In this document: in pieces, positions 20,237-61,627 of the stretch
How the letters are laid out: each line of letters starts with the position of its first letter
Position numbering within the stretch: the first letter of the stretch is position 1
Origin: an uncultured virus (IMG/VR IMGVR_UViG_3300043543_000740)
Lineage: Duplodnaviria; Heunggongvirae; Uroviricota; Caudoviricetes
Length of the DNA stretch: 64,000 bases
IMG/VR virus record: IMGVR_UViG_3300043543_000740
Direction: 5' to 3' (one strand)
Program-made: the position numbers and the translations under genes
Notes under the pieces: model-generated
Database searches by the model: none
Told to the model about the DNA's origin: nothing
The model's input: the letters and a program-made list of their open reading frames with translations, nothing else

Positions 20237-20437
20237 GCCGGTTCCCGACTGCCGCAACTCGGTGGCAATCCACTGTCACTTGCCGCGGTGACCGGCCCCC
20301 GCGTAACCGAGCTACGCCCAACCGCATTTCTGCGCGACGCCGGCCCGATTATGGGACATCCACCCGTCGCTCCGACACCGCGCACCGCCCATTGCCGAAG
20401 CCGTTTCCTTGAGGACACACTTTCTGCACATGACGGA

Positions 20438-26409: not shown

Positions 26410-26571
26410 GGGTGCGATCCTCGGCACGCGACGAACCGGAGGCGACGTGCGGTTCGGTATCGGGTCAACGAAGGTTGGATTTTGTGGCGCGACCTGCCCA
26501 CTGTCAACACCCTCGTGGCGATTTTCAGGGTTCTTCACGATACGCCCACACGGGCGTTGGACCGAAGCCGG

Positions 26572-44613: not shown

Positions 44614-46881
44614 TCAGCGTCGTTTCGCCTTCTGGAGTTCTGCGAAGCTCACCCGCTCGCGTTTGGGCGCGGGCTTCACGTCCGTGCCCGGCAGGGAGCA
44701 GCCCTGCATCGACGCGGCCACGGCGCAGCCGACGACGCCGTCGAGCCAGTGGTTGTCGCTCCGCTCGGGCCGCATCTTCCACTCGTCCACCGTGCGCCCG
44801 CGCCCCTCGGTCTTCACGCGGTACTCGGCGGTCAGGTGGTCCGCGAAGAGCCGGTGCGTCTCGGCCCGGTCGCCGAAGAGCGACAGGCACCCGCGGTCGC
44901 CCAGCACCACCGCCAGCCGCGCCTGCACGAACGACTTCCAGTAGTTGGTGTCGAACAGGACGTGCCGGACGGCCCGCTTCCCCTGCACGTTCGGGACGCG
45001 CCAGTGGTGGCCGACGCGGTCGCCCGGCCGCCGCTTGTACTCGCTGAACGGCTGGCTCGACGCGCCGACAAACCGTCCGTGGGCCGGCGTCACGACGGAG
45101 GCGTGGGCGGACTCGCGGCAGAACTGGTACACGACGTCCGTTGAGGTGCCCCAGTTGGCGTCGATCAGGCAGCGCTCGATTCGCAGGACCGCGCCGTCGT
45201 CGCGCGGCCAGTCGCGGCCGAGGAGCGCGGCCGTCAACTTCTCCAGCCCCTGGTAGATTGCCCCCTCGATCCCCGCCGCGCCGGTCGCGACGGCCAGCGT
45301 CGGGTTCGCCTCGCGGAGAGTGAAGTACGGCCGCCGCTGGTCGGGCCAGGTGCCGTAATCCAGGACGTAGCCGGTGAAATCGTCCTCCCAGCCGCACGCG
45401 ACCCAGAACAGCAGGCTCCCCTGCACGTCCACGAACGCGGTCAGCCGCCCGCAGCCGATCGGCACCTCGCCGCGGCCGCGCCGGTTGAACTTACCCGCGA
45501 TCTGGTCGGCGGTGAGCTCGTCGTCGCCGGCGACCTCCTCGAGGAGTGGCTCGTTCTGGTACTCGGCGAAGAAGGCGGCCTCGTCCTGGAGCCGCAGGTT
45601 CATCGCGTGCTGGATGGCCGACAGTTCGTCGTGGTTGAACCGGGCCGGCCAGGCGACGCGCGACCCGGCGTCCATCGCCTCCCGATGGGCGCGGTAGAAC
45701 TCGGTCGCCTCGACGCCCTCACGCCCCTCCCGCAGGCTCTCGGCGCGGATCTCGGCGTAGCGCTGCCAGAGCTTCTCGTCGGCCGGGAACGAGTAGACCA
45801 TCTTGGTCCGCTCGCCGTTCCACTCCGGGTGTTTGTCGCGCGAGAGGATGTTGTCCGCCATGTCGCCGGGGCGGATGACCGTACACGGCATGATCCCGGA
45901 GATCTTCCGCCCCGGCCCAGCCAGCCCCAGCACCGCGCCGGCGAGGATGCTCTCGCGGGTGGCGCACTGGGACAGCGACCGCGCCGACTCGTCGGTCTGC
46001 GGGTCGTCGAGCACGACGAGCGACGGCCGCACGGTCTTGCCGTCGGCCCGCTTGTACTTCATGCCACGGATGCGGCCGGTGATCCCCGCCACCTTGACGA
46101 TCGCGCCGCTGGCGGTGCTGCCGGGGATCGTCGGCAGCACGACTTCACGCGCCGTCCAGCCGATGTGGGTCCGCTCGCCCTTGTAGAGCTGGCCGTTGCA
46201 GCGGTTGGCGATCCCGTCGAGGCAGTGGATCGGGTAGACGACCTCCGGGAAGTCTTCGAGCAGCAGGTCGTTGCCGTCGAGCTCCATCTTGATGGCGTCG
46301 AGCATGTCCATCGCGTGCCCCTCGTCCGACCCGATCAGGCAGACGAACTCGCGGTGCCCGTAGAGCACCGCCCAGATGCACGCGCACTCCGAGATCGAAC
46401 TCTTCCCCGAGCCCCGCGGCATCGCCATCGCGAACAGGCCGCCGCGCAGGACTGCCTGCTCGATCCGGGCAATCACCTTCAGGTGGTCGTCGGACCACGG
46501 CAGCGAGAACGTCAGCGGGAAGTAGCTGTCGCAGAAGAACCGGAAGTCCGACGCGGCCCGCTCCTTCCGCTCGCGGTTCACCACGTCCGGTAGCTCACCA
46601 ATATCCCGCCCCGCCAGCGACAGCGCGAGGTTCCGCGCCCTCGACCGGGTCTTCAGCTCCTCGTAGGGGTCGCCGGCCGGTTCCGGTTTCGGGGCGTGGC
46701 GCTGCGAGACGAGCCACGCGACGTAGCGGACGAGGTCGACGTGCTTGCCGTCGCCGACCCGCATGCCGGCGCGGGAGCGGTGACGGTAGAGCTGCCGCTC
46801 GCTGATGACCTCGCCGAGCGGAGTCGAGTTCAGCAACCGGCAGAGCTCCGAGGGCTTCAGCCGCCGCGGGTCAGTCGCCAT
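44614..46881 (-). CDS. Terminase large subunit (GpA-like) with N-terminal HTH extension
   Basis: MPRGSGKS, VVLDDPQ, EYQNEP, VDVQ and NHWLD motifs. Confidence 0.92.
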   Translation of the reverse strand: MATDPRRLKPSELCRLLNSTPLGEVISERQLYRHRSRAGMRVGDGKHVDLVRYVAWLVSQRHAPKPEPAGDPYEELKTRSRARNLALSLAGRDIGELPDVVNRERKERAASDFRFFCDSYFPLTFSLPWSDDHLKVIARIEQAVLRGGLFAMAMPRGSGKSSISECACIWAVLYGHREFVCLIGSDEGHAMDMLDAIKMELDGNDLLLEDFPEVVYPIHCLDGIANRCNGQLYKGERTHIGWTAREVVLPTIPGSTASGAIVKVAGITGRIRGMKYKRADGKTVRPSLVVLDDPQTDESARSLSQCATRESILAGAVLGLAGPGRKISGIMPCTVIRPGDMADNILSRDKHPEWNGERTKMVYSFPADEKLWQRYAEIRAESLREGREGVEATEFYRAHREAMDAGSRVAWPARFNHDELSAIQHAMNLRLQDEAAFFAEYQNEPLLEEVAGDDELTADQIAGKFNRRGRGEVPIGCGRLTAFVDVQGSLLFWVACGWEDDFTGYVLDYGTWPDQRRPYFTLREANPTLAVATGAAGIEGAIYQGLEKLTAALLGRDWPRDDGAVLRIERCLIDANWGTSTDVVYQFCRESAHASVVTPAHGRFVGASSQPFSEYKRRPGDRVGHHWRVPNVQGKRAVRHVLFDTNYWKSFVQARLAVVLGDRGCLSLFGDRAETHRLFADHLTAEYRVKTEGRGRTVDEWKMRPERSDNHWLDGVVGCAVAASMQGCSLPGTDVKPAPKRERVSFAELQKAKRR

Positions 46882-47083
46882 GCGCGTCCTCCGCCACCAG
46901 CCACGCCGCGTAGTGAACCAGGTTGATCGTCCCGTCCGCATTGGTCGGCGCACCGGCGTCGATGTCCGCCCGGATCATCGCCTCCGTCACGCCGAACCCG
47001 CCCACCCGCGCGAGCATGCGCGCGGCGTCCGCGACGGGCATCGCGGCGGGGTTGAGCACGGGCTTCGCCTCGTCGGGCGGCAT
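46871..47083 (-). CDS. Small HTH protein, terminase small subunit-like
   Basis: Overlaps the terL start; paralog of 1-216. Confidence 0.65.
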   Translation of the reverse strand: MPPDEAKPVLNPAAMPVADAARMLARVGGFGVTEAMIRADIDAGAPTNADGTINLVHYAAWLVAEDAHGD

Positions 47084-47531: not shown

Positions 47532-47600
47532 GCCGAAACGCCTTCCCCACGCGGGAAGGTGTCGCGGCGGGTGGTTCCCGCCGCCTGATGACGGCAGCCA
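47532..47600 (+). ncRNA. Type II hammerhead ribozyme HHR3 (predicted cleavage after 47563)
   Basis: Intact core; stem III is GCCTTCCC/GGGAAGGT. Confidence 0.9.
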
Positions 47601-47617
47601 AACAACGGGGGACGAGC

Positions 47618-47869
47618 ATGTCGGCACAAACGGAGCGCAAGGTGACGGACGCGGCCGCGGCGATGCTGGTCGGCCGGCGGGTGGTGCGGGTCGGGTACAT
47701 GCCGGCCGCGGAGGCGGCGGACCTGGGGTGGTCGCACCGGCCGGCCGTGCTGGAGTTCGACGACGGGACCGTCGCCTACGCCGCCTGCGACGAGGAGGGG
47801 AACGACGCGGGCGTGCTGTTCGTGGAGGCGGGGCGAGGCGACCTCTGCCTCGGGCGGTTCCCGACCTGA
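47618..47869 (+). CDS. Hypothetical protein
   Basis: 83 aa with DEEGNDAG; the stop abuts HHR4. Confidence 0.7.
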   Translation: MSAQTERKVTDAAAAMLVGRRVVRVGYMPAAEAADLGWSHRPAVLEFDDGTVAYAACDEEGNDAGVLFVEAGRGDLCLGRFPT

Positions 47870-47933
47870 GCCGAAACGCGGGACGTCCCGCGTCGCCCGG
47901 CCGTGGCGGGCCGGGCCTGATGACGGCAGCCAC
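47870..47933 (+). ncRNA. Type II hammerhead ribozyme HHR4 (predicted cleavage after 47894)
   Basis: Intact core; divergent but paired stem I GCCCGGCC/GGCCGGGC; loop GTGGC pairs with tail GCCAC. Confidence 0.9.
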
Positions 47934-47954
47934 CGAACCCCGAGGAGCGGAACG

Positions 47955-48182
47955 ATGAACCCGCCGAAGCCGGTGACGATCGAGTTGGAGGTGACCGAGT
48001 TCCCCACCGCCCGCGAGGCGATCGAGCACGCCCGCGCGCACGGCGGCCGGGCGATCCGGCTGGGCGGCCGGAGCCTGGTGGTCCGCGACCAGGACGCGGA
48101 GTGGTTGGCGACCGCCCGGGTGGAGTTCGCGTACCTGTGCGACCACCACGGGCAGATCGTGACGGTCCCGGTCAACGATTGA
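47955..48182 (+). CDS. Hypothetical protein
   Basis: GAGGAG RBS; the stop abuts HHR5. Confidence 0.7.
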
Positions 48183-48183
48183 A

Positions 48184-48243
48184 GCCGAAACGCCCCCGCG
48201 GGCGTCGCGGCGGGTGGCTCCCGCCGCCTGATGATGGCAGCCA
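48184..48243 (+). ncRNA. Type II hammerhead ribozyme HHR5 (predicted cleavage after 48206)
   Basis: Intact core; stem III GCCC/GGGC; loop TGGCT pairs with tail AGCCA. Confidence 0.9.
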
Positions 48244-48268
48244 ACCCCATCGACCCGGAGCGACGACC

Positions 48269-48765: not shown

Positions 48766-49137
48766 TCAACGTGCGCCCTCCGACGCGACGTGGGCCGACG
48801 TGGGCGAACGGGCGGCCTCCGGGGCGAGGAACCGGACCGGCTTGCCCAGCGCGCGGGCCATCGCGATCTCCTCCCGCACCCCGATGCTCTCCCGCCACCC
48901 GTCGAGCATCAGCACCGCGACCTCGTCGCACCGCTCCAGGTGGACCCGGTCGATGCGTTCCCAATACGACCATGCGGTCGGCAACTCGAACTCGATGAGC
49001 GAGTGGCTGTGGACGATCGGCGAGAACACGACCTCGCCGGCGCGGAGCAGCGCGGCGGTCGCCCGGCAGGCGGCGCGGAACCGCTCTTCGCGGACCGCGG
49101 GGTCGGGATGCGAGTATGGACTGGCGAGGTAGATCAC
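48766..49137 (-). CDS. DUF1937-like protein
   Basis: Paralog of 3206-3649. Confidence 0.8.
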   Translation of the reverse strand: MIYLASPYSHPDPAVREERFRAACRATAALLRAGEVVFSPIVHSHSLIEFELPTAWSYWERIDRVHLERCDEVAVLMLDGWRESIGVREEIAMARALGKPVRFLAPEAARSPTSAHVASEGAR

Positions 49138-49499
49138 GCGGACACCTCCGCGCCGGTCCGCTCGGCCTTGCGGCCGGTGAACTTCTCCCACCGCTGGACG
49201 ATGACGTCGCAGTACAGCGGGTCCAACTCCATCAGGTACGCCTTCCGTCCGGTCTGCTCGGCGGCGATGAGCGTGCTGCCGGAGCCGCCGAACAAGTCGA
49301 GAACATGCTCACCCTCGCGGGACGAGTACTGCATCGCCCGCACGGCCAACTCGACCGGCTTCTCGGTGAGATGCACCATCGACTGCGGGTTGACCTTCTT
49401 CACGCTCCACACGTCCGTGGCGTTGTTCGGCCCGAGGTAGACGTGCGCCGCGCCCTCGCGCCAGCCGTAGAAGCACCACTCGTGGTTGCCCATGAAGTC
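49134..49499 (-). pseudogene. 3' part of the interrupted ParB-DNA methyltransferase
   Basis: DFMGNHEW...DLFGGSGS matches the C-terminus of 4032-5342. Confidence 0.9.
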
Positions 49500-51245
49500 C
49501 CCTCCGGGTAGCCGTGTGGAGCCATCGGCGAACGCACGCTCCAGGCCCGCGTGTAGGTAGACTGTGCCCGTCTTGTCGTCGGGGTTGACCTCGATCTTCT
49601 CGACGAACGCGGCGAGCATCTGCCGGTCCGCGAGGTCGATGTCCGTCCGCGTCGCCAGGGCGTCGAGTTTGGCGAACTGCTCCATCGCCCAGGCCCGCAG
49701 ATCGGCCTCGGTGATGATCGGTGTGGCAGGTTCATCGGTGGGCTTCAAGCGGGCCTCCAGCACGTCGCGCTTGGCCTTCAGGTCGGCCAGGGTGGTCCGC
49801 AGTTCGTCCAGACCGTCGAACGTCGGGTCGGCCAGCATCGACACGGTCGCCTTGATCTTGCGGTTCAGCAGGTCGAGCTCGCGCTCGTCGCCCCGCGTCG
49901 GCTTGGCCTTCGCTCGCGGGGCCAGCACCGCTTTGACGAACGCATCGACCGCCTTCTCGACCGTGGCGTGGTCGCCCAGCAGCACCTTCCGCACAGCATC
50001 CAGCACGAACCGGTCGAGGGCCGGGCCGGGGACGTTCACCACCCGGCAGACCGTCTTGCCGTAGCGGTGGTAGCCCGAGCAGGCGTAGACGCGATAGCCC
50101 TCGCCGGTCGGGCCGGGCCAGCGGCGGTCGCGGATCGTGGTGAACGGGTTGCCACACCGCTTGCACACCAGCAGGCCAGCCAGCAGGGTGCGTTTGGTCG
50201 GCCGGGCGTTGCCGTGCTCGGCCCGCCGCTTGGCCACGGCCCGCTGGGCGGCCGCCCAGGTATCCTTGCTGACCAACGCCTCGTGAACGTCCTCGCTGAT
50301 GATCCAGTCGGCCTCGGTGTTGCGCTGCCACATCTTCTTCCGCTTCGGCTTCAGCACGCCCTGGCCGTCGAGGCCGAACAGGCTGCCCATCGTGTGGCGG
50401 TTCCAGACGACCGCCCCGCGATAGACCGGGTTGCGGATCAGCTTGGCGATGCGGGCCGTGTTCCACTTCTGCCCGCCGGGCGACGGGATGCCCTCGGCGT
50501 TGAACGTCTGCGCGATGTGGTGGAAGCCGTAGCCCTGCACGCACAGGTCGAACATCCGCTTCACCACCGCTACCCGCTCGGGCAGGCTCGGGACGTAGCG
50601 GATGATGTCGCTCTTGGCCTTCTTCAGGTTGACGCCCACCGGGACCACTCGCAGCAGTCGGCCATCCGGCCCGAACTCCTGCTTACTACCGTCGGGCATC
50701 CACCGCAGCGTGCGGAGCAGTTGCCCGTCGCCGGTCAAGTGCTGCTTGTCGTAGCCGTACGGGGCCATGCCGCCGGGCGCGGACTTGCGTTCGCGGATGT
50801 TCGAGATCTGGCCCCGGATGCTGTCGCGGGCGAGCTTGACCGAGTACTGGCGGGCCTGCCAGGATTTGACGCCCTGGATCAGTTCGCCCTCGTCGCCCTC
50901 GGGGATGCCGTCGGCAGTGAAGACCACGCCGACGCCGGCCAGGTGCAGGCGGTGCAGGTAGAAGCCGGTCTCGTTGGTGCCGCCCCGCGAGAAGCGGGAG
51001 ATGTCGTAGCACAGCACCGCCTCGAAGTCGCGGCCGTTCTCGGCGGCCTTCATCATCTGCTCGAAGGCGTCGCGGCCGCGGGCACTGGTGCCGGACACCG
51101 CGTCGTCGATGTACCAGCGCAGCACGCGGTAGCCGTGCTCGGCCGCCCAGCGTTCGACGGCGGCCTGCTGGTCGGGGATCGAGCGTTCCTGCATGTCGGT
51201 GCTGCGGCGCGCGTAGCCGACGGCCGGGATCAAGGTCTTGGTCAT
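49134..51245 (-). CDS. Large serine integrase of the satellite, reading in-frame into the MTase C-terminus
   Basis: YARRS, DISRFSR and CKRC Zn ribbon; junction STRLPGG-DFMGNHEW. Confidence 0.9.
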   Translation of the reverse strand: MTKTLIPAVGYARRSTDMQERSIPDQQAAVERWAAEHGYRVLRWYIDDAVSGTSARGRDAFEQMMKAAENGRDFEAVLCYDISRFSRGGTNETGFYLHRLHLAGVGVVFTADGIPEGDEGELIQGVKSWQARQYSVKLARDSIRGQISNIRERKSAPGGMAPYGYDKQHLTGDGQLLRTLRWMPDGSKQEFGPDGRLLRVVPVGVNLKKAKSDIIRYVPSLPERVAVVKRMFDLCVQGYGFHHIAQTFNAEGIPSPGGQKWNTARIAKLIRNPVYRGAVVWNRHTMGSLFGLDGQGVLKPKRKKMWQRNTEADWIISEDVHEALVSKDTWAAAQRAVAKRRAEHGNARPTKRTLLAGLLVCKRCGNPFTTIRDRRWPGPTGEGYRVYACSGYHRYGKTVCRVVNVPGPALDRFVLDAVRKVLLGDHATVEKAVDAFVKAVLAPRAKAKPTRGDERELDLLNRKIKATVSMLADPTFDGLDELRTTLADLKAKRDVLEARLKPTDEPATPIITEADLRAWAMEQFAKLDALATRTDIDLADRQMLAAFVEKIEVNPDDKTGTVYLHAGLERAFADGSTRLPGGDFMGNHEWCFYGWREGAAHVYLGPNNATDVWSVKKVNPQSMVHLTEKPVELAVRAMQYSSREGEHVLDLFGGSGSTLIAAEQTGRKAYLMELDPLYCDVIVQRWEKFTGRKAERTGAEVSA
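49498..49520. other. att junction (integrase-proximal)
   Basis: TC-N6-GGGTAGCCGTGTGGA, inverted relative to 60093-60115. Confidence 0.85.
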
Positions 51246-51311
51246 GGGTTCGTCTCCGGGTTGCGCACCGACGCCCCGCATGGGCGGGGCGTGGCGGCGG
51301 GTTGTTTGGAA

Positions 51312-51611
51312 TCAGGCCAGCGTGAACCGGCCGCGGGCGACCTTGTGGAACTTGGCATCCTTGCCCTTGGCCCGGATCTGTCGCAGTAGGGAGGCGTACA
51401 GGGTCGCGGCCGGGGTCTTGCCCGCCGGGCTGCTCCAGAGCCCCTTGGCCATCATCGCCTCGACCATCTCACCGCAGGTCATCGGCTCGCCGGCGTCGGC
51501 CAGGACGCGCTCGGCGGCGGCGATCTGGCTCAGCTTCTCGGCCGGGGCCGGTTGCGGTTCAGGCTTCTTCTTCGGGGCTGCCTTCTTCTTCGTGGTCGTC
51601 TTCGTCGCCAT
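51312..51611 (-). CDS. HARE-HTH-like protein
   Basis: GKTPAATLYASLLRQI; third paralog. Confidence 0.8.
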   Translation of the reverse strand: MATKTTTKKKAAPKKKPEPQPAPAEKLSQIAAAERVLADAGEPMTCGEMVEAMMAKGLWSSPAGKTPAATLYASLLRQIRAKGKDAKFHKVARGRFTLA

Positions 51612-51942
51612 CGTGGTTCTCCCGCATCGGGTCGTCGTGGTCGCGGGGCGACGATCCCTCCGCGTCAGGACAGTCAGTTACAAGCCGGTTCGCCCCGGTT
51701 CCAGCGACTTCCGGCCCGATTCCGGGAGATTCTTCCGGGGCCAGCAGGTGCTTCCGACCCGCCCGGATGTCGGCCTCGAGTTGTTTGAAGAACCGCCACT
51801 CCCACAACGGCACCAGCACCACGTCCGCCTTGCCGTAGCGGGTGATGACGACCGGCTCGTCGGTGCGGGCGACGTGCAGGCAGACCATGCCCAGCCCGTC
51901 GCGCAGCAGCGACACCGCCATCTTGTGCTCGGTCGGCTTCAT
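51559..51942 (-). CDS. Phd/YefM-like antitoxin or regulator
   Basis: EPVVITRYGK..VVLVP; the C-terminal tail is doubtful. Confidence 0.6.
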   Translation of the reverse strand: MKPTEHKMAVSLLRDGLGMVCLHVARTDEPVVITRYGKADVVLVPLWEWRFFKQLEADIRAGRKHLLAPEESPGIGPEVAGTGANRLVTDCPDAEGSSPRDHDDPMRENHDGDEDDHEEEGSPEEEA

Positions 51943-52027
51943 GGTTCCTTTCCGGGTTTGGCTCCCCGCGATGAGGTCGGGCGGAACAGGCACGGGGAAC
52001 AAGACACACATCTTGTGACCAACAAAA

Positions 52028-52120
52028 TCCGGACCTGTACAAGAAGGAAACTGTGCTTACCCCGGTCGGTGTTCCGCGTGCCAATTTTTCTTTTCGATCC
52101 GGCCGGGAAGGAACCATTGG
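52028..52120. other. Satellite copy of the cos-like conserved site
   Basis: TCCGGAC..AAACTGTGC..TGTTCC..GGCCGGGAAGGAACCATTGG. Confidence 0.45.
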
Positions 52121-52178
52121 CCAGTTGTTGCGTGTGCAACACCTGATCCATTTGAATCACCCGGTCCGGCGGGTTGTC

Positions 52179-52368
52179 TTCCACACGGCTACCCCGCGAC
52201 CTCTCATCGTGCCGCGCGTGCTTGTGCGCGCTTCCTATACCCGCCCCCCGGGGTGCGTTCACGCACCCACGGGGGGTATAAGGGGGGTGCGCGCACACAC
52301 ACACAGACACCCGAGGCGGGTCAGCAAGACGCCGGGAGGAAGTTTCCACACGGCTACCCCGCGACCTC
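52179..52368. repeat. Two 25-bp direct repeats containing the att arm, flanking a long imperfect palindrome (candidate ori)
   Basis: TTCCACACGGCTACCCCGCGACCTC at 52179 and 52344. Confidence 0.75.
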
Positions 52369-52381
52369 ATGAACGCGGTCA

Positions 52382-53971
52382 TCACTCATCCTCCGGCTGG
52401 GGTCGCGTGGCGAACTGGACCGGCTGGTTGGCTCCGAACTTCCAGCGGTGGACGAGCCCGGCGGCCTCGGCCTGCTTGAGCAGCTTCTTGGCCAGCGGTT
52501 CGGGCACATCCGCCTCCGTGGCCCGGTGGACGATGCGCGCCGTCATGGCGGGCGTCTTGGTCACGAACGCCGCCACGAACGAAGGGACGGTCCACTCCGG
52601 CTTCGACGGCTTGGCCGGCTCGGGCTGCGGGGTCGGCTTCGGCTTGCGGCGGAGCTTCTCGGACTTGAGGTCGGACGGGTCGAGCGCGTCCTCGACGGTC
52701 CAGACCGGGAACGACCAGCGCAGACACCTGGGTTCGATCGGCGGCCACGAGCGGACGGCGGCGTCGAGGACGGCCACTCCGGGCTCCTCGTGCGGACGCA
52801 GGACGAGGTGCGTGTCCGCCGCACGCGACTGCGCCCCGGCCCCCGCGCCGACATCCGTGACCGCCTTGCCCGACTGGTTCCCCTTGGTGCTGTGGTGGAT
52901 CAGCACGAACGCGCACTGCAACTTCGCGGCATAGGCGTCCAGCACGTTGTACACCTGGGCCATCGTGCCGTTGTCGTTCTCGTCCGTGTCCCTCGGCATC
53001 GCCCGGTAGAAGGCGTCGATCACGACTAGCTTGTACCTGCCCGGCTCGATCCGGCTGAAGCACGGCCCCAGGCCGAAGATGTCTTTCAGCTTGCCACGCA
53101 GGTTCACGATGTCGATGCGGTCGCCGCACTCGGCGAGCGTGATGCCGCGGGCCTCCATGACCTTCGGGATGCGGCCGGCCGACGTTTCCTTGTGCAACTC
53201 GTTGTCGATGAGCAGCACCCGGCCCTGTTCGCACGGGAACAGATCGAGCCACGGGCGGCCGGTCGCCACGGCCAGGGCGAGGTCGCTCACCAGCCAGGAC
53301 TTGCCGACCTTGGGCGAAGCGATGACGTTCAGCGTCTCGCCTTCGCGGAGCAGCCCATGCACGACCGGCGGTCGCAGGTGCGGATACCGCATGACGAGTT
53401 CGCGGAGCGACTGGATGGGAAACTCGTCCGGCTCCGACTTGGCGGGTGTCGGCACCGGCTTGGTCCCGGTGCGAAGCCACTCCAAGTTGCCGGGCTTCTT
53501 GGTGAGCGGTGCCGGCTCGGGTTCCGGCGGTTCGTCCCAATCGTCGTCGGGACGGGGTGGTTCGGTGGGTTGGTCGAAGTCGATCGGCTCGGCCGCCCAG
53601 CGTTCGACTCGAGTGAGCCAGCGTTCCAGTTCCACGCCGAAGTCGCGCTCCTCGGCATCGGGGTTGAACCACGCCTGCTCGACGAACGCCAGCGCGTGAT
53701 GCCGACCGCGCAGTTGAGCCGCCAGAACCTCGTGGCCCGGCGTGTACCACTCCGCGCCGTCACGCTCGACCCGCGCGTTCTCCCGGGCGATCTGCCGCTG
53801 CTCCTCGACGAACTGGATCACCTCGATGTCCGGCCGGAGCCACTGCGACGCCTCGCGGGCACCGAGGAGAAATCCCTCCCGATAGGCATGCTCGGCCTGC
53901 TCCCGATGCGGATGGCCCTCGGGCAGCACGGAATCGCCGTAGTAGGGCACCATTTCAGTTGCGTTCGACAC
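52382..53971 (-). CDS. AAA_25 / RepA-like helicase
   Basis: ASPKVGKS, LIDNE, VVIDAFY and LIHHSTKG motifs. Confidence 0.85.
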   Translation of the reverse strand: MSNATEMVPYYGDSVLPEGHPHREQAEHAYREGFLLGAREASQWLRPDIEVIQFVEEQRQIARENARVERDGAEWYTPGHEVLAAQLRGRHHALAFVEQAWFNPDAEERDFGVELERWLTRVERWAAEPIDFDQPTEPPRPDDDWDEPPEPEPAPLTKKPGNLEWLRTGTKPVPTPAKSEPDEFPIQSLRELVMRYPHLRPPVVHGLLREGETLNVIASPKVGKSWLVSDLALAVATGRPWLDLFPCEQGRVLLIDNELHKETSAGRIPKVMEARGITLAECGDRIDIVNLRGKLKDIFGLGPCFSRIEPGRYKLVVIDAFYRAMPRDTDENDNGTMAQVYNVLDAYAAKLQCAFVLIHHSTKGNQSGKAVTDVGAGAGAQSRAADTHLVLRPHEEPGVAVLDAAVRSWPPIEPRCLRWSFPVWTVEDALDPSDLKSEKLRRKPKPTPQPEPAKPSKPEWTVPSFVAAFVTKTPAMTARIVHRATEADVPEPLAKKLLKQAEAAGLVHRWKFGANQPVQFATRPQPEDE

Positions 53972-54125
53972 GTTGCACCTCCTCCCGGCCGCGGAGCCAC
54001 TGGGCCAGGAGCCATGCCGCCAACGCCTCGGCGCGCCGCTCGACGCGGGCCTGGGCCTCGGGCGCGGGGTCGCTGAACGCCACGGTGAACGTGAACGAGC
54101 CGATCTGCGGGTTGGTGTCGGACAT
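53955..54125 (-). CDS. Small hypothetical protein (56 aa)
   Basis: GAGAGG RBS, MSDTNPQIG; overlaps the helicase start. Confidence 0.5.
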   Translation of the reverse strand: MSDTNPQIGSFTFTVAFSDPAPEAQARVERRAEALAAWLLAQWLRGREEVQRVERN

Positions 54126-54259
54126 GGCCCCTCTCCTGTGCCGGTCCTGCCGAGGCAGGGATGAACCCCACGGCGGGGTTCGGCGACGGCTTGCCGGGTC
54201 GGCAAGTCGCGTTCGCCAGAGGCGAAGAGGGTCGGTCGATAGGTTGTGTCAGTGGGCTG

Positions 54260-56102
54260 TCAGTTCTCCCCTTTGGCCTTGTACGCGGCCCGGTGGTCGG
54301 CCAGCGCGGCCCCGTAGTCGAAGTAGACCCGCCAGGACACGGCCAGCTTATTCGGCTCCGCATCCATGCCGAAGAACTCGACGTTCGGCGACTGAACACC
54401 TTGCAGGAAGGCGACGATCAGCGGGGTGTCGGCCGGCCCGGCGAACAGGTACCACGCCTTCGCCGAGGTGCCGCTGAACCGCCCCGCGTTCGACAGTCGC
54501 GGCTCCACTTCCAGCGTCACGGCGTTCTTGAGGGCGTTGCCGGTGGGCACGTCGTTGTTGGCCCGCTGCAGAAAGTCGCTCATGAGCAACTCCTTGGCGG
54601 TCTGCTGCAACTCCGGCGGCACCAGCAGCACGCGCGGCCGGATGTCCAGATCGCGGCCCTCGCCGTCGCGCTGGCTCATCATCTTGGCGATGCCCGCCCC
54701 CAGCGACGCGCTGGACAACGCCGTGGCCGTCCCGGTGTCGTAGTTGGCGTGGCCGCCGCTGAAGAAGTTCCCGGCGTTGGCCAGCAGCACCTGGTACACG
54801 AGGTCGCTCAAGGACCGCATCGCCGCCCGGCCGAGGTTCCGGGCCGTCTCGTCGAACAACGATAAATCGTCGTTCACAACATCCCTGCGGTCGATGCTGA
54901 GCATCTTGGCGAAGGTGTCGATGCGGAACGGGTAGGTCATCTCCTTGATGGAGCCGTGCTTGATCTCGCCGCCGGGGGCCAGCTGGGTGAGGTCCCCCAC
55001 GTCACTACCCCGCACCCCGGTGTGCGGCTTGAAGTCCGTCGCCGACTTGATGCCCGCGAACGACCGCCACGTCGCCGGCGTCTCGGTGTAGGCGTCCATC
55101 AGCAGCTTGTTGGCCGCGTCACCCAACGCCACCGGCAGTGAGTAGGTGGACAGCGCGGCGCGGATCAGGGCGTCCCGGCTGCTGGGAATGTCCCGGCCGT
55201 CGAGTTGCAACGCCGCCCGGCACAGGTCGATCAGGTTCGTGGCCCGGAGGTCGCGGGCCTGCTGGGCTGCCGTGGCCCCGAGGTGCCGTTCGGCGAGGTG
55301 TTCGTAGCCCATGTGGCTCAGCACCGCCGCCTCCAGCGTCTGTCGGGTCGTGGTGAACGTCCGGCTGTGGATCGTCGTCACCTGCGGCCGGCTGGCACGC
55401 AGGACTTCGAGCCGCGTGCGGCGGACATCCCAGCCTTCCACGATGGCGCGGGCCTCGATGTCGCCGAACTGCCCGCCGCACGCGGTGCGGATGGCGTGGA
55501 CCCGCTCCGTCTCGGCCAGGGCCGCCGCTCGGATGTCATCGGCCGTCTGCGTCTCGTTCATGGTGCTCTCCTTCCCTTGGGCCGCGATGGCGACCGACGT
55601 GTTCGCATCGGCCCCGATGGCGACGATGCTCACCTCCCGCAGCACGCCGGCCTTGACCAGCGTGAACCCACTCCGTCCGGCGGTGATCGCCCGGCCGTTC
55701 ACCTGCACGGATTCGCCGCCACGAACCCGCTCGTAATCGGTAGGCATCACGCCGACCGATGCTTGGAACTTGAACCCGCCCCGAGCGAGTTCAACCACCT
55801 GCCGGGCCGCCTCGGTCACGCCGGTAAGCGTGCCGTGGACGAGCAGCTTGCCGTCGATCACCTGCGCGCGGCCGTGCCCGACGATGCCGTCGAGTGTGGC
55901 GTCGTGGTCCGCCAAGAGGCTGATCTGCTCGGCTCCGGCATCAAGCCCCGCGAGGTCGATGGCAACCGGCCCCCAGCCCGGCACCGTCATCAGCCCGCCC
56001 GTGTACGCCACGATGGAAACGCTCGGCGGTTTGCCGGACGCGGCTTGAATCTCGACCTCGGCGGATGACAGCAGGATTTCTTGAGACGCAGTGGAACGCA
56101 TG
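54260..56102 (-). CDS. Satellite protease-major capsid fusion
   Basis: Homologous to 40835-42790 (AYTGG, QASVG, GGEIKHG, NDDL). Confidence 0.88.
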
Positions 56103-56392
56103 AGGTGACCGACCTCCCCGGAACGACGGAACGGAAGCAACCGGTCGGGCACGGTGCCCGCCGGTCGAGGGGTGGTTGGATGGGTGGGTCGTTGGGTTGG
56201 GTCGGTCGGTCGATGGGTTCGTTCGGGTCGTCAGGGTGGGAAGGTTTGCTCCCGGTCCTTGGCCGTCATGGCGCGACCGTTCCCCGACTGGAAGAATTGT
56301 AGCGGATGTACACCTTGACGACAAGCCCGGGAGATGATTTTCTTTCGTATAACAATGTTCTCATCGAGAAAGGCATCCCGAGAGTACTTGCC

Positions 56393-59300
56393 ATGCGTCG
56401 TTCCCTATCGTCCTGGGCCAAGAGCATCTTCCCGACCGCCCCGACTCGGCCGATCCGTAAGCCTCGTTCCTTGACCCTGGAACAGTTGGAAACGCGCGAC
56501 TGCCCGACCGTCCTGCCGCCGGGCGGCCCCGAACCGCAGCCGCCCGGCCCCGGCTTCCCGCCGGTAGCCAACCCGGACCACTTCGCCTTCGCTCCCGACG
56601 CGCCGATCCGCATCAGCGTCGCCGACCTGCTGGCCAACGACACGGCCGCGCCCGGCGTGCCGCTGACGGTCGAACTGCTCGATAGCCCCGCCGGCGGGCA
56701 ACTCGACCTGATCGACGTGGGCCTGTGGGAGTACACGCCCGGCACCGGTTTCAGCGGCAGCGACGCTTTCAGCTACCGCCTCTTCGACGGCACCGATTAC
56801 AGCCTGCCCGCCCTCGTGACCTTCGAGCAGCAGCCCACCCCGCCAAGCACACCAGCCACACCCACCGTCACCGACGTGACCGAGGCGTGGCTGACCGGCT
56901 TCGAGGATGAGGCCCTCGGCAGTGTCACCGTCGCGGTGTTCGAGACGGCCGAGGCGGACGTGCTCGACTGGACCGCCAGCATCGACTGGGGCGACGGCAC
57001 CACAACCACCGGGCAGATCGTGGCCGACGGCGACGGCCGGTTTCGCGTCGTGGGCGAACACACCTACGACGCGTGGGGCCTGTACCTCGTGCAGGTCACG
57101 CTGACCGACACGGTCGAGGAGACGCACGACCTCTACAACCTGGCGAGCATCCAGTTCCGCAACTACACTTACACGTTTACCGACCCGATCGGCAACAGCA
57201 CGCAGTTCGTCTTCGCCGAGGGCTGGCAACTCACGCAGGAGATCGACCCGCTCGGGAATTCGACCTTCTACAGCTACACCACCGACGGCCTGCTCGCCAG
57301 CCGCACCGACCGGCTGGGCCGGGCCATCACCTTCGACTACGGCACCGACGGCGTGCTCCTGAGCCAGACGTGGCTGGCCGCCGACCTGACCACCGTGGTG
57401 GACACGCTGTCGTTCAGCTACACCAGCGACGGCCTTTTGCTCAGTGCGAGCAACGGCGTCGGGGCGTACACATTCAGTTGGGCCGACGGGGTGCTGACCG
57501 GCGTGACCAACCCGTTCGGGGTGACGCTGACGTTCGGCTACGACACCGACGGCCGACGGACCTCGGTGGCCGACTCGTTCGGCGGGCTGATCACCTCGAC
57601 CTACACCGACGGCCTGCTCAGCAGCCGGACGCTCGTGGCCGGGGCGTTGAACCTGCGGGTCGATCTGGGCTACGACGCCGACGGGGTGCCGACCCAGATC
57701 AGCCGGTTCGCCGGGCCGCTGCAGGAGTTGGTGTCGCAGACGGAGTACGCCTTCGCGCAGGGCTTGCTCGCCTCGATCACGCATCGCGGCGCGGGCGGGG
57801 TGATCCTCGACCAGTTCCTCTACCAGTTCGACGAGGACGGCTTCCTCTCGCAGATCACCTCCGACTTCGTGGGCGAGACCGACTACGCCTACGACGCCGA
57901 CGGGCAGTTGACCGGCGAATCGTCAATCTTGGTGTCCAGCACGTTCAGCTACGACGCCAACGGGAACCGGGTGGGCGGCGGGTACGTCGTCGGGCCGGGC
58001 AACCGCCTGCTGGCCGACGGCACGTGGAGCTACAGCTACGACGCCGAGGGGAACCTCGTCGGCAAGACGCACCTCGTGACCGGCGATAGTTGGACCTACA
58101 GCTACGACCACCGCAACCAGATGACCCTGGCCGAGAAGCGTGACGCGAGCGGGTCGGTGGTGCTCTACGCAGTCTACAAGTACGACGTGTTCGGCAACCG
58201 CATCGAGAAGGCGGTGGACTGGGACGGTGATGGACCAAACACGCCAGTCATGACGCGGTACGTGCTTGACGGCTGGAACAACATGAAGCCGACGCCGGTC
58301 GGCAACGAGCACTTCGACGTGTACGCCGAGTTGGACGGCACGAATCAGTTGATCGCCCGGTATCTGCACGGCGACGAGTTCGACCAGACGTTCGCGCGGG
58401 TGTTGGTGGACGGCAGCACGCCCGAGGTCCACTGGCTGTTGGCCGACCACCTGAACTCGGTGCGTTTGGTGCTGGACGAGAGCGGCGCGGTACTCGACCA
58501 GATCGCCTATGATGCCTTCGGCAATATCGTGGCGCAGCTGAACCCGCTGCTCGTTAACCCGATCCTGTTCGCCTCGCGCGAGTTCGACGCCGAGACGGGC
58601 CTCTACTACAACCGCGCCCGCTACCTCGACCCCACCACCGGCTGCTGGACCACGCAAGACCCGCTCGGCTTCGCCGCCGGCGACGCCAACCTCTATCGCT
58701 ACCTGAACAACAGCCCGACCCTTGCCACCGACCCGAGTGGCTTGATCTGGTATCCGGGGAAGTATCTGTACCAGATGTACAGCGAATACCGACGGGGTCA
58801 GGAACTGGATCGCCAGATTAACCAGCATCGTGCCACGCAAAACTTACCGCCACTCCCGCCGCCGCCTCACTGGGCACGAGTGGCTGTCACGGAGTTTGGT
58901 GATGGTCTGCGGATCGGGTTTCAAGCCAACGTGAATGCGGTAGCGACGGCCGGACGTTCGTTGGTCACCTTGGGTATCTGGGCCGAGCCGTGGGAAGTGT
59001 GGGCAGTGGATGACGTCGATCGGCCGTTCTACGAGGATGGGTTTTTGGCTGCACGCTTCGGCTGGGAGTTGCTGCCGACGGCGGGGATTGGCAAGCTGAC
59101 GCAAGTGCCGGGTCAGATGGGTCGCTGGGGCCGGTACGCTCTGTACTGGGACGCTGGCCAGAATGTTGTCCAGGTCGGTCGGGGTGGTTATGATATCTAC
59201 GAAAACGGCCTGACCTGGACGAATGGCCTGCAAGTCGGCGGCCTGCTCGGACTGGGCGGCAACTACACCACTTGGCGGAGGCTGCCGAGTGTAGCTCCAG

Positions 59301-59602
59301 CAGGTAAGGGGGGAAGAGGGGACATCATGCGGATGGCCCCGTCTGATGCCCCTCGGTCTGCCGCCGAGGCCGCCTTGCGACGGGAAGCAGAATTGCGACA
59401 GCGAATCCTGGCAGATCGTCTTGCTGAGTTAGGTCACGGTGAGGGTGGTGCTGTCGGAAAGGGAGCGACCCGCCTTCCTCCTGAAGCAGCGAATGATCCC
59501 ACGGCCCGAGGTATGTGGGAAGAGTTGCAAAGGATTCGTCGCCAGATTGCTGACCTTCGCCGTAACCCGCCTTCTGGCCCCCGTGAAATGCTGGAACCTT
59601 GA
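56393..59602 (+). CDS. Rhs/YD-repeat polymorphic toxin with planctomycete export motif
   Basis: LEQLETRDCP, Ig-like domains, YD repeats, GLYYNRARY..DPLG..NLYRY..DPSGL. Confidence 0.92.
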   Translation: MRRSLSSWAKSIFPTAPTRPIRKPRSLTLEQLETRDCPTVLPPGGPEPQPPGPGFPPVANPDHFAFAPDAPIRISVADLLANDTAAPGVPLTVELLDSPAGGQLDLIDVGLWEYTPGTGFSGSDAFSYRLFDGTDYSLPALVTFEQQPTPPSTPATPTVTDVTEAWLTGFEDEALGSVTVAVFETAEADVLDWTASIDWGDGTTTTGQIVADGDGRFRVVGEHTYDAWGLYLVQVTLTDTVEETHDLYNLASIQFRNYTYTFTDPIGNSTQFVFAEGWQLTQEIDPLGNSTFYSYTTDGLLASRTDRLGRAITFDYGTDGVLLSQTWLAADLTTVVDTLSFSYTSDGLLLSASNGVGAYTFSWADGVLTGVTNPFGVTLTFGYDTDGRRTSVADSFGGLITSTYTDGLLSSRTLVAGALNLRVDLGYDADGVPTQISRFAGPLQELVSQTEYAFAQGLLASITHRGAGGVILDQFLYQFDEDGFLSQITSDFVGETDYAYDADGQLTGESSILVSSTFSYDANGNRVGGGYVVGPGNRLLADGTWSYSYDAEGNLVGKTHLVTGDSWTYSYDHRNQMTLAEKRDASGSVVLYAVYKYDVFGNRIEKAVDWDGDGPNTPVMTRYVLDGWNNMKPTPVGNEHFDVYAELDGTNQLIARYLHGDEFDQTFARVLVDGSTPEVHWLLADHLNSVRLVLDESGAVLDQIAYDAFGNIVAQLNPLLVNPILFASREFDAETGLYYNRARYLDPTTGCWTTQDPLGFAAGDANLYRYLNNSPTLATDPSGLIWYPGKYLYQMYSEYRRGQELDRQINQHRATQNLPPLPPPPHWARVAVTEFGDGLRIGFQANVNAVATAGRSLVTLGIWAEPWEVWAVDDVDRPFYEDGFLAARFGWELLPTAGIGKLTQVPGQMGRWGRYALYWDAGQNVVQVGRGGYDIYENGLTWTNGLQVGGLLGLGGNYTTWRRLPSVAPAGKGGRGDIMRMAPSDAPRSAAEAALRREAELRQRILADRLAELGHGEGGAVGKGATRLPPEAANDPTARGMWEELQRIRRQIADLRRNPPSGPREMLEP

Positions 59603-59610
59603 GGAAGATC

Positions 59611-59943
59611 ATGATGGAAAGAAAGAACGGTCGAATCGTCGGCGGCTCTTTCGATGAGCTTGTGGCGATGCTATCTTCGTCCAATCACTTCGACCGGGCT
59701 GAGGCGGCCAGGCTGCTCGTCAACATGCGGAAGGAGGCCATCAAGGCATTACCCGCACTTCTGGCTCTGCACAATGACCCCTGTGATCTGGTTCGCATTC
59801 AAGTACCCCGTGCGATTATTCACATGGAAGCTCGCCCTGATGAGGCTGCTGAGGTTCTACGCTGCCTTTTGAATGACAAGAACAAGATCGTCAGGCTGTA
59901 TGCTGAAGAAGCGCAGCAGTTTCTCACCCAGCGAACGTCATAG
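59611..59943 (+). CDS. HEAT-repeat protein, putative immunity protein
   Basis: Directly after Rhs; LHNDPCDLVR / LLNDKNKIVR; lower GC. Confidence 0.65.
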   Translation: MMERKNGRIVGGSFDELVAMLSSSNHFDRAEAARLLVNMRKEAIKALPALLALHNDPCDLVRIQVPRAIIHMEARPDEAAEVLRCLLNDKNKIVRLYAEEAQQFLTQRTS

Positions 59944-60092
59944 CTCTTTGTGTGCTGCTCGTCCCGAAGTACGCCGCCGCCTTTTCACCCCCCGGAGTCC
60001 CAATCAAGAACACAGGCCGGGGTAGCTACCAGCCTAGCCTGAAAAATGTTCACATCCACACGTTTCCCCGTTCCCACTCGAACCCGACCCGT

Positions 60093-60115
60093 TCCACACG
60101 GCTACCCCGTGAATC
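60093..60115. other. att junction (distal)
   Basis: TCCACACGGCTACCC-N6-TC. Confidence 0.85.
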
Positions 60116-61060
60116 CTTGCGGGTGAGCACCGGGTGCTCCTTCACCCAGATGATCGCCTGCGAAAAGTACAACTCGCAGGCCTTCAGCACCGGCGGGTAG
60201 TTGGCGCAGTTGGCGTAGCCGCCCCAGATGTAGAAGCCGCGGCCGGGCTCCAGCACGCGGGCGAGGTTCCCGAACCACGCGGCCAAGAGCCGGTCGAACT
60301 CGGCGTCGGAGACGAAGTCGTTGGCGAGCGGCCGGTCCTTGGCGCGGAGCTTCTTCCCCGTCGGTTTGGCCTTCTCGGGGTGGCGCTCGACGTCGAGCTT
60401 CTGGTGGTGGGTGGTGCCGGCGAACGAGGAGAGGCCGGCGGCGATGGCGTTGTTGGAACGCGGCTCGACCTTCACGTTGTACGGCGGGTCGGTGTTCACC
60501 AGGTGGATGCCCGCGCCGCCGAGCAACCGGTCCACGTCCGCCGGCTTGCTGCTGTCGCCGCACAGGAGGCGGTGGTCGCCCAGCACCCACAGGTCGCCCG
60601 GTTTGGTCGTCGCCTCGTCCGGCGGTTCGGGCACCTCGTCCGGGTCGGTCAACCCGTCCTTCAGGGTCGGGTCGAGCAGCTTCGCCAGCTCGTCCGCGTC
60701 GAAGCCGAGGAGCGCGAGGTCGTAGTTGGCCTCCTTCAGCCCGGCCAGTTCGATCGGGAGCAGGTCGTAGTCCCACGTCGCCAGCGACGCCGTCTGGTTG
60801 TCGGCGATCCGGTAGGCGCGGATCTGCTCGGGGGTCAGGTCCGTGGCGACGTGGACCGGCACCTTCTCCAGGCCCAGCTTCAGTGCCGCCTTGTAGCGCG
60901 TGTGGCCGACGACGATGACGCCCTCGGCATCGACGACGATCGGCTGGCGGAACCCGAACTCGCGGAGCGACGCCGCGACCGCATCGACCGCGTCGGCGTT
61001 ATCCCGCGGGTTGCCGGGGTACGGCTTCACGTCGGTGATCTTCCAGAGTTCGATCTTCAC
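60114..61060 (-). pseudogene. 5' part of the interrupted ParB-DNA methyltransferase
   Basis: Matches 4032-5342 up to HPVLTRKD, then diverges. Confidence 0.9.
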
Positions 61061-61280
61061 AGGTCGTCCCTCCAGGTTTCGCCGTGGTACAGCTCGATGG
61101 CGGTCAGCTCGTGGGCAGGTCGCCTCTCGACTCCGAACGGCTCGGTCGGCACGGGGCGGGCGCGGCGCGTCCCGGCCTCGCTGAGCTAGGCCGGGCGGCC
61201 GACGCATCGAAGGCAATAGGGGCCGTGCGGCGTGTCCCGACCGCACCCCTCACATCAGCGCATGGAGCACCTCTCCGAAG

Positions 61281-61365
61281 TCCGGACAGCGAAAACAAAC
61301 TGTGTCCTGTAGCGCGGCTGTTCCCCCTGGCGTCGCGGGCGAAACATGCGGCCGGGAGTACCTAT
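61281..61365. other. Candidate cos/packaging site of prophage B
   Basis: Same blocks and spacing as 5364-5448. Confidence 0.45.
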
Positions 61366-61487
61366 TGGACCGATCGACCTTCGGGGCGTAGCGGCATCGG
61401 CCACGCCGATGTTCGGATCTCACCACGAACCAGAAACGATGGATCGGCACCTCCAACACGATGAAGAACAAGAAGAGAATCCGAGGG

Positions 61488-61627
61488 GGAGGTAGTTCGT
61501 AGTTTTTGGTAGCCACCCTTTCTCTCCTCCAGCGCCGATCGCGCACACACGAGGTGGGTGCGAAAAACGACGAACTACCTCCTTCACGCGGAGACAAGGC
61601 GGGTACGAAAAACTACGAACTACCTCC
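61488..61627. repeat. Iteron-like repeats (candidate ori)
   Basis: AAAAAC(T/G)ACGAACTACCTCC at 61563 and 61608; inverted copy at 61488. Confidence 0.7.

Follow-up and report, generated by a model that had tools for sequence, protein, structure and literature searches.

A 64,000-nucleotide stretch of DNA from an uncultured Caudoviricetes virus (IMG/VR record IMGVR_UViG_3300043543_000740; the whole stretch is hereafter called the window) carries a 10.6-kb element inserted in the methylase gene of a prophage, and the attachment site of this element (attP) lies inside the coding sequence of its own serine integrase. Integration exchanges the C-termini of the integrase and the methylase in frame, so that the resident integrase loses a short native tail and gains the last part of the methylase. 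The same exchange recurs in related elements at other phage genes, both forms of the integrase exist among public sequences, and the exchanged tail is constrained. As the best overall explanation, we consider it somewhat more likely than not that this is a satellite-like element whose in-frame exchange of C-termini gives the integrase a state-specific form. A preliminary description of the window had placed attP within the integrase open reading frame (ORF) with C-termini exchanged upon integration, and this structural claim is borne out by the ORFs, by the empty site in a second virus record, and by the relatives. It had not recognized that the interrupted gene belongs to a prophage or that the element resembles a satellite, and its suggestion that the methylase halves complement each other in trans is unsupported, as discussed below.

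Exchange of C-termini between integrase and methylase

The integrase is read from a minus-strand ORF of 715 amino acids (49134..51281). Its body comprises 583 amino acids when counted from MTKTL (49497..51245, minus strand), or 595 when counted from the upstream ATG at 51281, and ends in ...STRLPGGD; homologs start MTKTLIPAVGYARRS. Residues 20-431 match the Pfam families Resolvase (PF00239, 3.5e-24), Recombinase (PF07508, 5.7e-27), and Zn_ribbon_recom (PF13408, 4e-13). There is no stop codon ahead of the junction. Asp595 (49499..49497) is followed by 120 methylase codons and a stop (49134..49496, minus strand), which form the 3' part of the prophage ParB-methylase gene, continue in the integrase frame, and include the FGGSG motif. 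Residues 620-695 of the fusion correspond to positions 139-220 of the 221-position Pfam profile N6_N4_Mtase (with LDLFGGSGS), and the translation of 49134..49496 is identical to residues 379-498 of the intact methylase in the virus record G001. The gain of about 120 methylase residues with FGGSG, as first described, is thus confirmed by both the sequence and the Pfam match. GC content at codon positions 1, 2, and 3 of the integrase frame is 0.61, 0.52, and 0.91 over the 450 nucleotides past the junction, which marks real coding sequence and not a chance open frame of GC-rich DNA; at third codon positions (GC3) of the integrase ORF it is 0.93.

The 5' part of the methylase gene lies at the other end of the element (60113..61246, minus strand) and encodes ParB_N, positions 1-91 of the N6_N4_Mtase profile, and DPPY. 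It shows 100% identity to the G001 methylase across 317 amino acids. The ORF containing it (60050..61246, minus strand) ends in ...PVLTRKD-SRGSRVERVGFEWERGNVWM and a TGA at 60052..60050, where SRGSRVERVGFEWERGNVWM and the stop (60050..60112, minus strand) are the native tail of the integrase, now joined to the N-terminal half of the methylase. This is where the tail of the circle form had been expected, and the same tail is present in public proteins and contigs. The two junction peptides of the integrated composite would read ...LPGGDFMGNHEW... and ...TRKDSRGSRVER....

Downstream of the fusion lies the prophage gene for a DUF1937 protein (48766..49137, minus strand; Pfam 7.3e-23 from residue 18 of a long ORF). 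The methylase TGA (49136..49134) overlaps a GTG (49137..49135) that is the likely start of this gene, reading VIYLASPY. Since the fusion ends at the methylase's own stop, coupling to the DUF1937 gene would be kept, and the earlier claim that all frames are preserved, including this coupling, agrees with the overlap and with the position of the crossover dinucleotide GA at the start of an Asp codon. The integrated state encodes integrase residues 1-595 joined to methylase residues 379-498, and methylase residues 1-378 joined to the tail. The excised circle would encode an integrase with its tail, ending ...GGDSRGSRVERVGFEWERGNVWM before the stop, and would leave the phage methylase intact again.

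Empty sites and anatomy of the attachment sites

The virus record G001 (49.5 kb) provides the empty site. It shows 99.87% identity to window positions 22488-49512 and 99.95% identity to positions 60106-64000, and its uninterrupted methylase of 498 amino acids reads ...IIWVKEHPVLTRKDFMGNHEWCFYGW... across the site (also excerpted as ...PVLTRKDFMGNHEW...), with cacccgcaagGActtcatgggc as the attB DNA. The left and right matches share only the three bases GGA in G001, which sets the insert at 10,616 bp, from the GA at 60115-60114 to the GA at 49499-49498. Contigs of two other metagenome runs from different studies (X3 and X5, one contig each) likewise join 49497 to 60114 and skip 10,616 bases, with three shared letters at the join and sides of 22 and 45; these are contigs at ≥90% likeness, not raw reads. 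They show that the empty form exists, not that excision occurs within one population.

The hybrid sites can be read directly from the integrated copy. On the minus strand, attR (49477..49520) consists of the P arm (49506-49520), a spacer (49500-49505), the GA (49498-49499), and the B' half (49477-49497), and attL (60093..60136) consists of the B half (60116-60136), the GA (60114-60115), a spacer (60108-60113), and the P' arm (60093-60107). The element side of attR reads tccacacggctaccc-ggaggg-GA, and that of attL reads GA-ttcacg-gggtagccgtgtgga. Rebuilt from these, attP is a 44-bp dyad (15-bp arm, 6-bp spacer, GA, 6-bp spacer, 15-bp arm) with arms that are perfect reverse complements, and by its sequence it has the anatomy of a large-serine-recombinase attP. 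It spans the last eight codons of the integrase body (STRLPGGD) and the first eight codons of the 20-amino-acid tail. In the integrase frame the P arm encodes S-T-R-L-P-G-G-D and the P' arm S-R-G-S-R-V-E, and the GA opens an Asp codon; in the methylase the same GA opens the Asp codon of TRKD, followed by FMG. Because GA provides the first two bases of Asp in both genes, strand exchange swaps the downstream parts in frame. By hand count, 9 of 15 flanking positions in attB are symmetric around the same GA, and the identity between attP and attB is small, as their junction overlap is only GGA. The natural filled and empty sites are those that attP × attB recombination by the integrase would leave. 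A search of the window with the P'-arm motif returned four matches against 0.26 expected.

The recurring coding motif GSRVE was also considered as a tRNA fragment. This was ruled out, as ARAGORN found no tRNA gene and the motif is the P' arm itself. The window contains a second ParB-methylase gene (4032-5381, minus strand) in a tandem related prophage; it is 83% identical to the first and intact. Its attB-like site at 4385-4384 (ccggtcctcacgcgcaaaGActtcatgggcaatcatgag) is unoccupied and has 5 differences from the occupied site over about 40 positions.

In-frame fusions recur across phage targets

A protein search returned 202 matches at E ≤ 1e-20, and the counts below refer to the best 120 clusters. 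The C-terminal region is reached by 114 of the 120, and all 114 carry ...STRxxxG[DE] at the junction. Among these listed matches, 24 clusters run F/YMG(N/A)... into the methylase and a further one (P0033, locus L098) enters it about 25 codons further on; eight run DPQTDES... into terminase gpA, and one enters a Terminase_6C terminase. About 23 clusters end in xRGxxKxKGE[AV], three run P[AV]D[AT]GF.../GFDAV... with a weak tail-tube match (E = 0.0037), and single clusters are fused to Sel1, GH2, and F5/8-like domains. Behind related integrases, Pfam finds terminase, methylase, DUF899, Sel1, GH2, and Terminase_6C domains in frame.

Several loci show the target directly. In L093 the fusion carries GpA_nuclease and the portal gene comes after it, and the attL side reads ...LVV[IL]D up to the crossover, which is the Walker B motif of the terminase. 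In L108 a cement gene lies 10 nucleotides past the integrase stop and a helper capsid (amino acids 491-643 of 651) about 11 kb upstream, which identifies the target as the final 11 codons of the capsid gene. A second position in terminase gpA is used in L082, and in L035 the integrase runs into a DUF899 gene. In all 36 loci with an alignment to the last residue the junction codon starts with GA, as follows from the conserved Asp/Glu residue.

The phylogeny of the integrase bodies was estimated with FastTree from 113 sequences. Methylase-targeting (33 rows), terminase-targeting (15), and capsid-3'-targeting (43) integrases form clades with support of at least 96 each, and the target labels require 38 changes on the tree against a mean of 61.9 after shuffling, with no value as low in 200 shuffles. 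Integrase subclades thus follow their targets. Related integrases of Planctomycetota metagenome-assembled genomes (MAGs) and viral contigs read in frame into these and other genes. Frame preservation is therefore not peculiar to the window: comparable in-frame fusions are seen at the methylase, terminase, and capsid genes and at further targets, and in this respect the first interpretation is not refuted. In one relative (L089, cluster P0014) an intein-like insertion of about 270 amino acids is located in the fused C-terminal half of the methylase, 8 codons past attB (FMGAHEW-C...HN-CFYGW), so that one conserved motif attracts mobile elements of two kinds.

The conserved tail of the free-state integrase

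The form of the integrase that would be made from the uninterrupted attP exists in the databases. Five clusters end in the predicted type of tail, namely P0026 (SRGSRVERVGFGWERGGVAS before the stop; 35 members), P0038 (SRGSRVERVKFAWDRGRVRNAE before the stop), P0034, P0027, and P0021, and in two contigs (L019 and L111) an integrase is followed by an intact attP. P0038 is sister in the tree to P0039, a terminase fusion. A search with the last 69 amino acids of P0026 returned only P0026 and P0038, with no further attP forms. The exact attP pattern with the element's own arms had no match in metagenome contigs; a relaxed pattern matched three loci in metagenome contigs (L110, L111, and L112) and none in viral contigs. 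L111 is the only one of these three with integrase plus attP, since L110 and L112 lack an integrase.

If the tail were translated only by accident of its position, its codons would be free to change. Fifteen tails were available as DNA, 12 of them at the attL junctions of elements that target the methylase, the terminase, or other genes, two from attP contigs, and one from L112, and all 15 contain an RVERVGFxWERGK(V/I)-like motif. Over codons 9-19, which lie beyond the 15-nucleotide arm, synonymous differences per site (pS) are 0.52 and nonsynonymous differences per site (pN) are 0.20 (pN/pS = 0.39). At the eight conserved codons the values are pS 0.50 and pN 0.12 (pN/pS = 0.24), and at the four spacer codons pN/pS is 0.88. 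Arg16 of the tail is encoded by four different codons, and Gly17 occurs with all four third-position bases. In this small sample of 15 tails, the substitution pattern is that of a translated peptide under purifying selection. Across targets, the only constant protein context of the tail is the integrase of the un-integrated element. The constraint on the part past the attP arm lends indirect support to the earlier suggestion that the two isoforms could matter for directionality or stability.

The structure of the P0026 protein was predicted with AlphaFold2 (53-row alignment, mean predicted local distance difference test [pLDDT] 79.8). Long helices at residues 451-471 and 479-500 lie between the zinc-ribbon strands and the final strands (548-565), so the model would contain a coiled-coil insertion in the zinc-ribbon domain. 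After a low-confidence linker (578-586), the tail forms strands at 589-597 and 600-602 (block pLDDT 71-76), and on this model it probably folds as a small beta-hairpin near the base of the zinc ribbon and coiled coil. Docking of the tail (570-603) against the body (1-569) gave weak support, with a score of 0.32 against 0.01 for the best of three controls, agreement between runs in at least 68% of contacts, and partner pLDDT of at least 47. Of 157 solved complexes, 116 reach the docking mark, as do 2 of 215 mismatched pairs, and scores up to 0.60 comprise only 18 of the 157 solved complexes and both passing mismatched pairs. We give the docking little weight, as the cut falls in a helix naturally packed on the body.

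Two of the contigs with attP deserve description. L111 (1-3526) encodes an integrase with 75.8% identity, followed by an intact attP and then by an RHS fragment abutting terminase residues 122-602; instead of a simple circle, this contig may represent a tandem or rearranged form. In L112 (4110-4260) a complete attP-like dyad and the conserved tail are preceded by only the last 8 integrase codons, before which stands a truncated sulfatase gene; behind the dyad and tail come a cargo gene for a methylase and a gene for a capsid protein. This arrangement may reflect a deletion, a secondary-site event, or an assembly chimera.

State-specific function or neutral by-product

Under the explanation that we favor, the tail would be on the integrase when integration is needed and absent when the element is resident. 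That the free-state integrase uses the tail as a functional module, such that the resident copy makes a different enzyme, is a serious possibility, although we stop a little short of calling it probable. It would form its small beta-hairpin beside the zinc-ribbon and coiled-coil base. We propose more tentatively that the fusions, by ending at the stop codon of the target itself, keep the helper genes further downstream coupled. A stronger version, in which loss of the tail itself switches the integrase toward excision and directionality is written in the state of the DNA, appears improbable to us. In that case the tail hairpin, sitting at the base of the coiled coil where directionality factors act, would lock the integration mode, and the resident tail-less integrase would excise (attL × attR) once helper transcription enters the element. 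There would then be no separate directionality factor, or less need for one, and paired P'-arm half-sites inside the element would let the integrase regulate its own operon.

The exchange could alternatively be a neutral by-product. If attP abuts the 3' end of a compact integrase gene and any extension is tolerated, then the isoforms would be equivalent, and in-frame junctions would arise because GA is mostly the start of an Asp/Glu codon in GC-rich genes and because half-sites of the same phase are found most easily. The expected proportion was estimated from the codon phase of GA in the genes of the window, excluding the integrase fusion and the split methylase. On the integrase strand, 28.9% of GA dinucleotides open a codon of a sense gene, 24.8% fall in a different phase of a sense gene, and 46.3% lie within antisense genes; the composition null is thus already 0.289 and not 1/6, which favors a neutral origin. 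Junction types were classed, approximately, from Pfam matches, context, or the GC content of the codon phases. Of the 15 types that could be classed from loci alone, 8 lie in the sense direction and in frame, which gives P = 0.04 relative to 0.289 and P = 0.001 relative to 1/6. When protein-only types are added the count is 12 of 20 (P = 0.004), which is biased, as such types were spotted partly through their fused domains. About 10 further junction types could not be classified.

Several observations weigh against a state-specific integrase. The in-frame excess is modest over the codon-composition null, and one persistent target (in Phycisphaerae, with tails SS[IS]HS...) is antisense. Likeness between half-sites together with codon periodicity could favor same-frame targets without selection. 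The extensions that integrated copies gain at the C-terminus are between 11 and 464 amino acids long and mutually unrelated, so that the gained part can have no specific role; if anything matters, it could only be that the tail is lost. In the 15 tails the internal RVERVGFxWERGK is conserved but the terminal residues are not, which would speak against a classical terminal degradation tag. No excised circle was directly seen, none of the contig joins listed for the window is a circle junction, and L111, with its attP intact, is rearranged at its far end. The heterogeneity of the fused parts also fits a neutral by-product, as do the off-target relatives nested within the target clades of the tree, with antisense or unclassifiable tails (P0025/L015 and L020), and the reported activity of engineered C-terminal fusions of serine integrases (PMC5737554).

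The tail itself stands against neutrality. Past the attP arm it has been kept as a peptide in 15 of 15 sequences despite many synonymous changes (pN/pS 0.24-0.39), where drift would be expected, and of the five persistent targets, four (the methylase, the terminase, the capsid 3' end, and a probable tail tube) are entered in the sense direction and in frame. We consider a purely neutral origin rather unlikely. Frame preservation is conserved and enriched, which falls short of establishing selection for it.

Complementation between the methylase halves, as raised in the preliminary description, would have the N-terminal half (ParB, DPPY) and the integrase-fused C-terminal half (FGGSG) assemble in trans and so keep helper methylation. 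The break does fall between the catalytic and the SAM-binding halves, and both halves are open and in frame. However, elements of the same design occupy the Walker B motif of the terminase and the final 11 capsid codons, where complementation is implausible, and relatives also insert at a second methylase position (L098). With terminase and capsid targets sharing the design, complementation has no general rationale, and we regard it as very unlikely. It is just as hard to credit that the fusion ORF is a dead integrase in a degraded prophage: the closest genomic relative (L012; 92% identity, from a Gemmataceae MAG) has a frameshifted integrase, and helper prophages of embedded satellites are often truncated according to the accessible text of PMC10111431, but here the ORF is intact with its GC3 of 0.93, precise empty sites exist in a 99.9%-identical phage record and in contigs of two other metagenomes, and many related fusion ORFs are intact. 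In L012 (9624-11361) the integrase lies in two frames, owing to a frameshift or sequencing error near residue 505.

Gene content of the element and its presumed helper prophage

The remaining genes of the element suggest a satellite. Next to the integrase on the minus strand are genes for a HARE-HTH protein (51312..51611; Pfam 1.3e-14), a core gene found at the same place in L023 and L093, and a small Phd/YefM-like protein (51559..51942), for which the Pfam match is weak (2e-5, below cutoff) and identity to its counterparts in L023, L093, and L016 is 52-61%. The Phd-like protein is a candidate regulator or directionality factor. They are followed by an AAA_25 helicase/primase-like replication protein (52382..54205, minus strand; Pfam 1.6e-29; PHROG 2597 "DNA primase", 6.6e-40) and a protease-major capsid fusion (54260..56152, minus strand; Phage_capsid_4 2e-41; PHROG 4523 1.6e-78) with 35% identity to the prophage capsid (40835-42790). 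These core genes share the strand of the methylase, and the cargo (56306..59943), identified with Pfam as an RHS-repeat toxin (56306-59602) and a HEAT-repeat putative immunity protein (59599-59943), is on the opposite, plus strand. PHROGs gave no match for the HARE-HTH protein, the Phd-like protein, or the other small ORFs of the element. Relatives keep the core gene order (L023, L093, and L108) and vary in cargo: L023 has a transglutaminase-like gene and L093 one for an Eco57I-like methylase. Measured by means of the attL arm, the elements of 11 loci are 9.8-11.4 kb long.

Searches with Pfam and PHROGs found no portal, terminase, or tail genes in the 10.6-kb element. The element may therefore need a helper for induction, packaging, and transfer. 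The same searches found no AlpA among the element ORFs, and the integrase is a serine recombinase, so the element departs from the tyrosine-integrase, four-zone layout of phage-inducible chromosomal islands (PICIs). It is likely that the element is a helper-embedded satellite into which reading of the helper operon continues and whose excision restores the helper gene. Between 49000 and 52500, a sigma-70 promoter scan returned no sites, a result that is uninformative for this phylum, and one terminator-like site was found against 2.0 expected. Rfam had no match at E ≤ 0.1 across 49000-61300.

An intergenic control region (52179..52368, plus strand) between the helicase and Phd-like genes contains the P'-arm motif twice in the same orientation (52179-52203 and 52344-52368); the two copies are 165 bp apart and flank a strong hairpin. 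The hairpin of 140 nucleotides has a folding energy of -114.6 kcal/mol (z = -3.96; none of 200 shuffles was as strong). Pairs of half-sites, placed at -2.5 to -3.1 kb relative to the crossover, are also found in L012, in L023, and in L085, which targets the terminase, and single copies in L021 and L033; in L012 and L023 the half-sites match each element's own arm. These internal half-sites could be integrase operators or part of an origin.

The interrupted methylase is a prophage gene, as it is flanked by a prim-pol/PriCT primase gene (61613-63964) on one side and by genes for DUF1937, terminase gpA (44614-46953), a lambda-family portal, and capsid on the other. With the protease-capsid fusion (40835-42790) and the cement and head-tail joining proteins, the host replicon is a lambda-like-head prophage of a Gemmataceae-type planctomycete. 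Window positions 4059-18672 are a second copy of the same phage type, 76-85% identical, with the methylase at 4032-5381 intact and its own unrelated serine integrase (16006-17598).

Other features of the window lie outside the element. Between the prophage copies (19100-26538) are an rve_3 transposase gene (19100-20236), a stretch of lower GC content (0.59-0.61), and a gene for a 1665-amino-acid protein with nine He_PIG Ig-like stretches (21541-26538), inside which G001 ends at 22488. Between the terminase and DUF1937 genes (47558-48244), a 44-nucleotide GC-rich repeat containing a hairpin, GGCGGGTGG.TCCCGCCGCC...GATGACGGCAGCCA, occurs three times, and each copy precedes a small plus-strand gene. 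Nested repeats, both inverted and direct (GGAGGTAGTTCGTAG...), occupy 61487-61628 between the primase gene and the methylase gene of the prophage, with arms 87% complementary; they may be an operator or origin.

Relation to known systems and significance

Insertion by a serine integrase within a gene that is restored precisely upon excision is familiar from A118 in comK, SPbeta in spsM, and skin in sigK. The present element resembles such classical prophages and "regulated gene integrity" elements in its att sites of about 40-50 bp, its 2-bp crossover, and its intragenic insertion with precise restoration, and differs in that its target is a prophage gene rather than a chromosomal one. The gene comK is also named in PMC3556126.

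The nearest counterparts are the helper-embedded PICIs (HE-PICIs) of Enterobacteriaceae, for which the accessible text describes tyrosine integrases, AlpA, arm-type motifs, and identity blocks (Tommasini, Mageeney and Williams 2023, PMC10111431). As in the HE-PICIs of that text, the element lies inside and is co-oriented with a gene of the presumed helper prophage, which is disrupted without replacement; its integrase belongs to a clade that recurrently inserts into prophage genes (terminase, capsid, and others), the subclades corresponding to the sites; and it has its own capsid and replication genes and variable cargo. Compared with what is described there, the recombinase here is a large serine recombinase, the phages are those of Planctomycetota, and one main target is a methylase of the replication module instead of a late gene. 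Furthermore, attP here is inside the integrase ORF and the proteins exchange C-termini, whereas "in-frame" does not occur in the available text of PMC10111431. The element is thus a serine-integrase analog of the helper-embedded satellites.

Placement of attP within a coding sequence has precedents. In mycobacteriophage BPs and its relatives, attP lies inside the repressor ORF and integration by a tyrosine integrase strips a C-terminal degradation tag, so that viral and prophage genomes encode different C-termini and integration acts as a switch (PMC3694055, from its accessible part). The present element shares an attP within coding sequence and state-dependent C-termini; relative to that account, it is the serine integrase itself that is affected, a conserved internal motif is removed, and a host-derived extension is added. 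In SSV-type "suicidal" archaeal integrases the recombination site likewise lies within the integrase's own ORF, and integration splits the tyrosine integrase gene in two (PMC7253208, as far as its available text goes), whereas here only a 20-amino-acid tail is exchanged and all three large-serine-recombinase domains stay on the 715-amino-acid ORF. In ICEKp1, integrase expression depends on state through promoter switching, according to the excerpted text of PMC13023037. We found no description of a serine-integrase attP within the 3' coding end of the integrase in a literature search that had subscription-only journals and supplements outside its scope.

These elements form a large and apparently undescribed family of serine-integrase elements that homes to the most conserved motifs of phage genes in Planctomycetota (methylase, terminase Walker B, and capsid 3' end). 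They extend the idea of helper-embedded satellites beyond the enterobacterial tyrosine-integrase PICIs and supply natural attP/attB pairs for dozens of related integrases. If the two isoforms differ in function, the direction or level of recombination would be set by the side of the crossover on which the gene ends. Integration-dependent immunity provides an example of that principle in a phage repressor, but none is known among serine integrases; the design of self-limiting integrases would profit from it.

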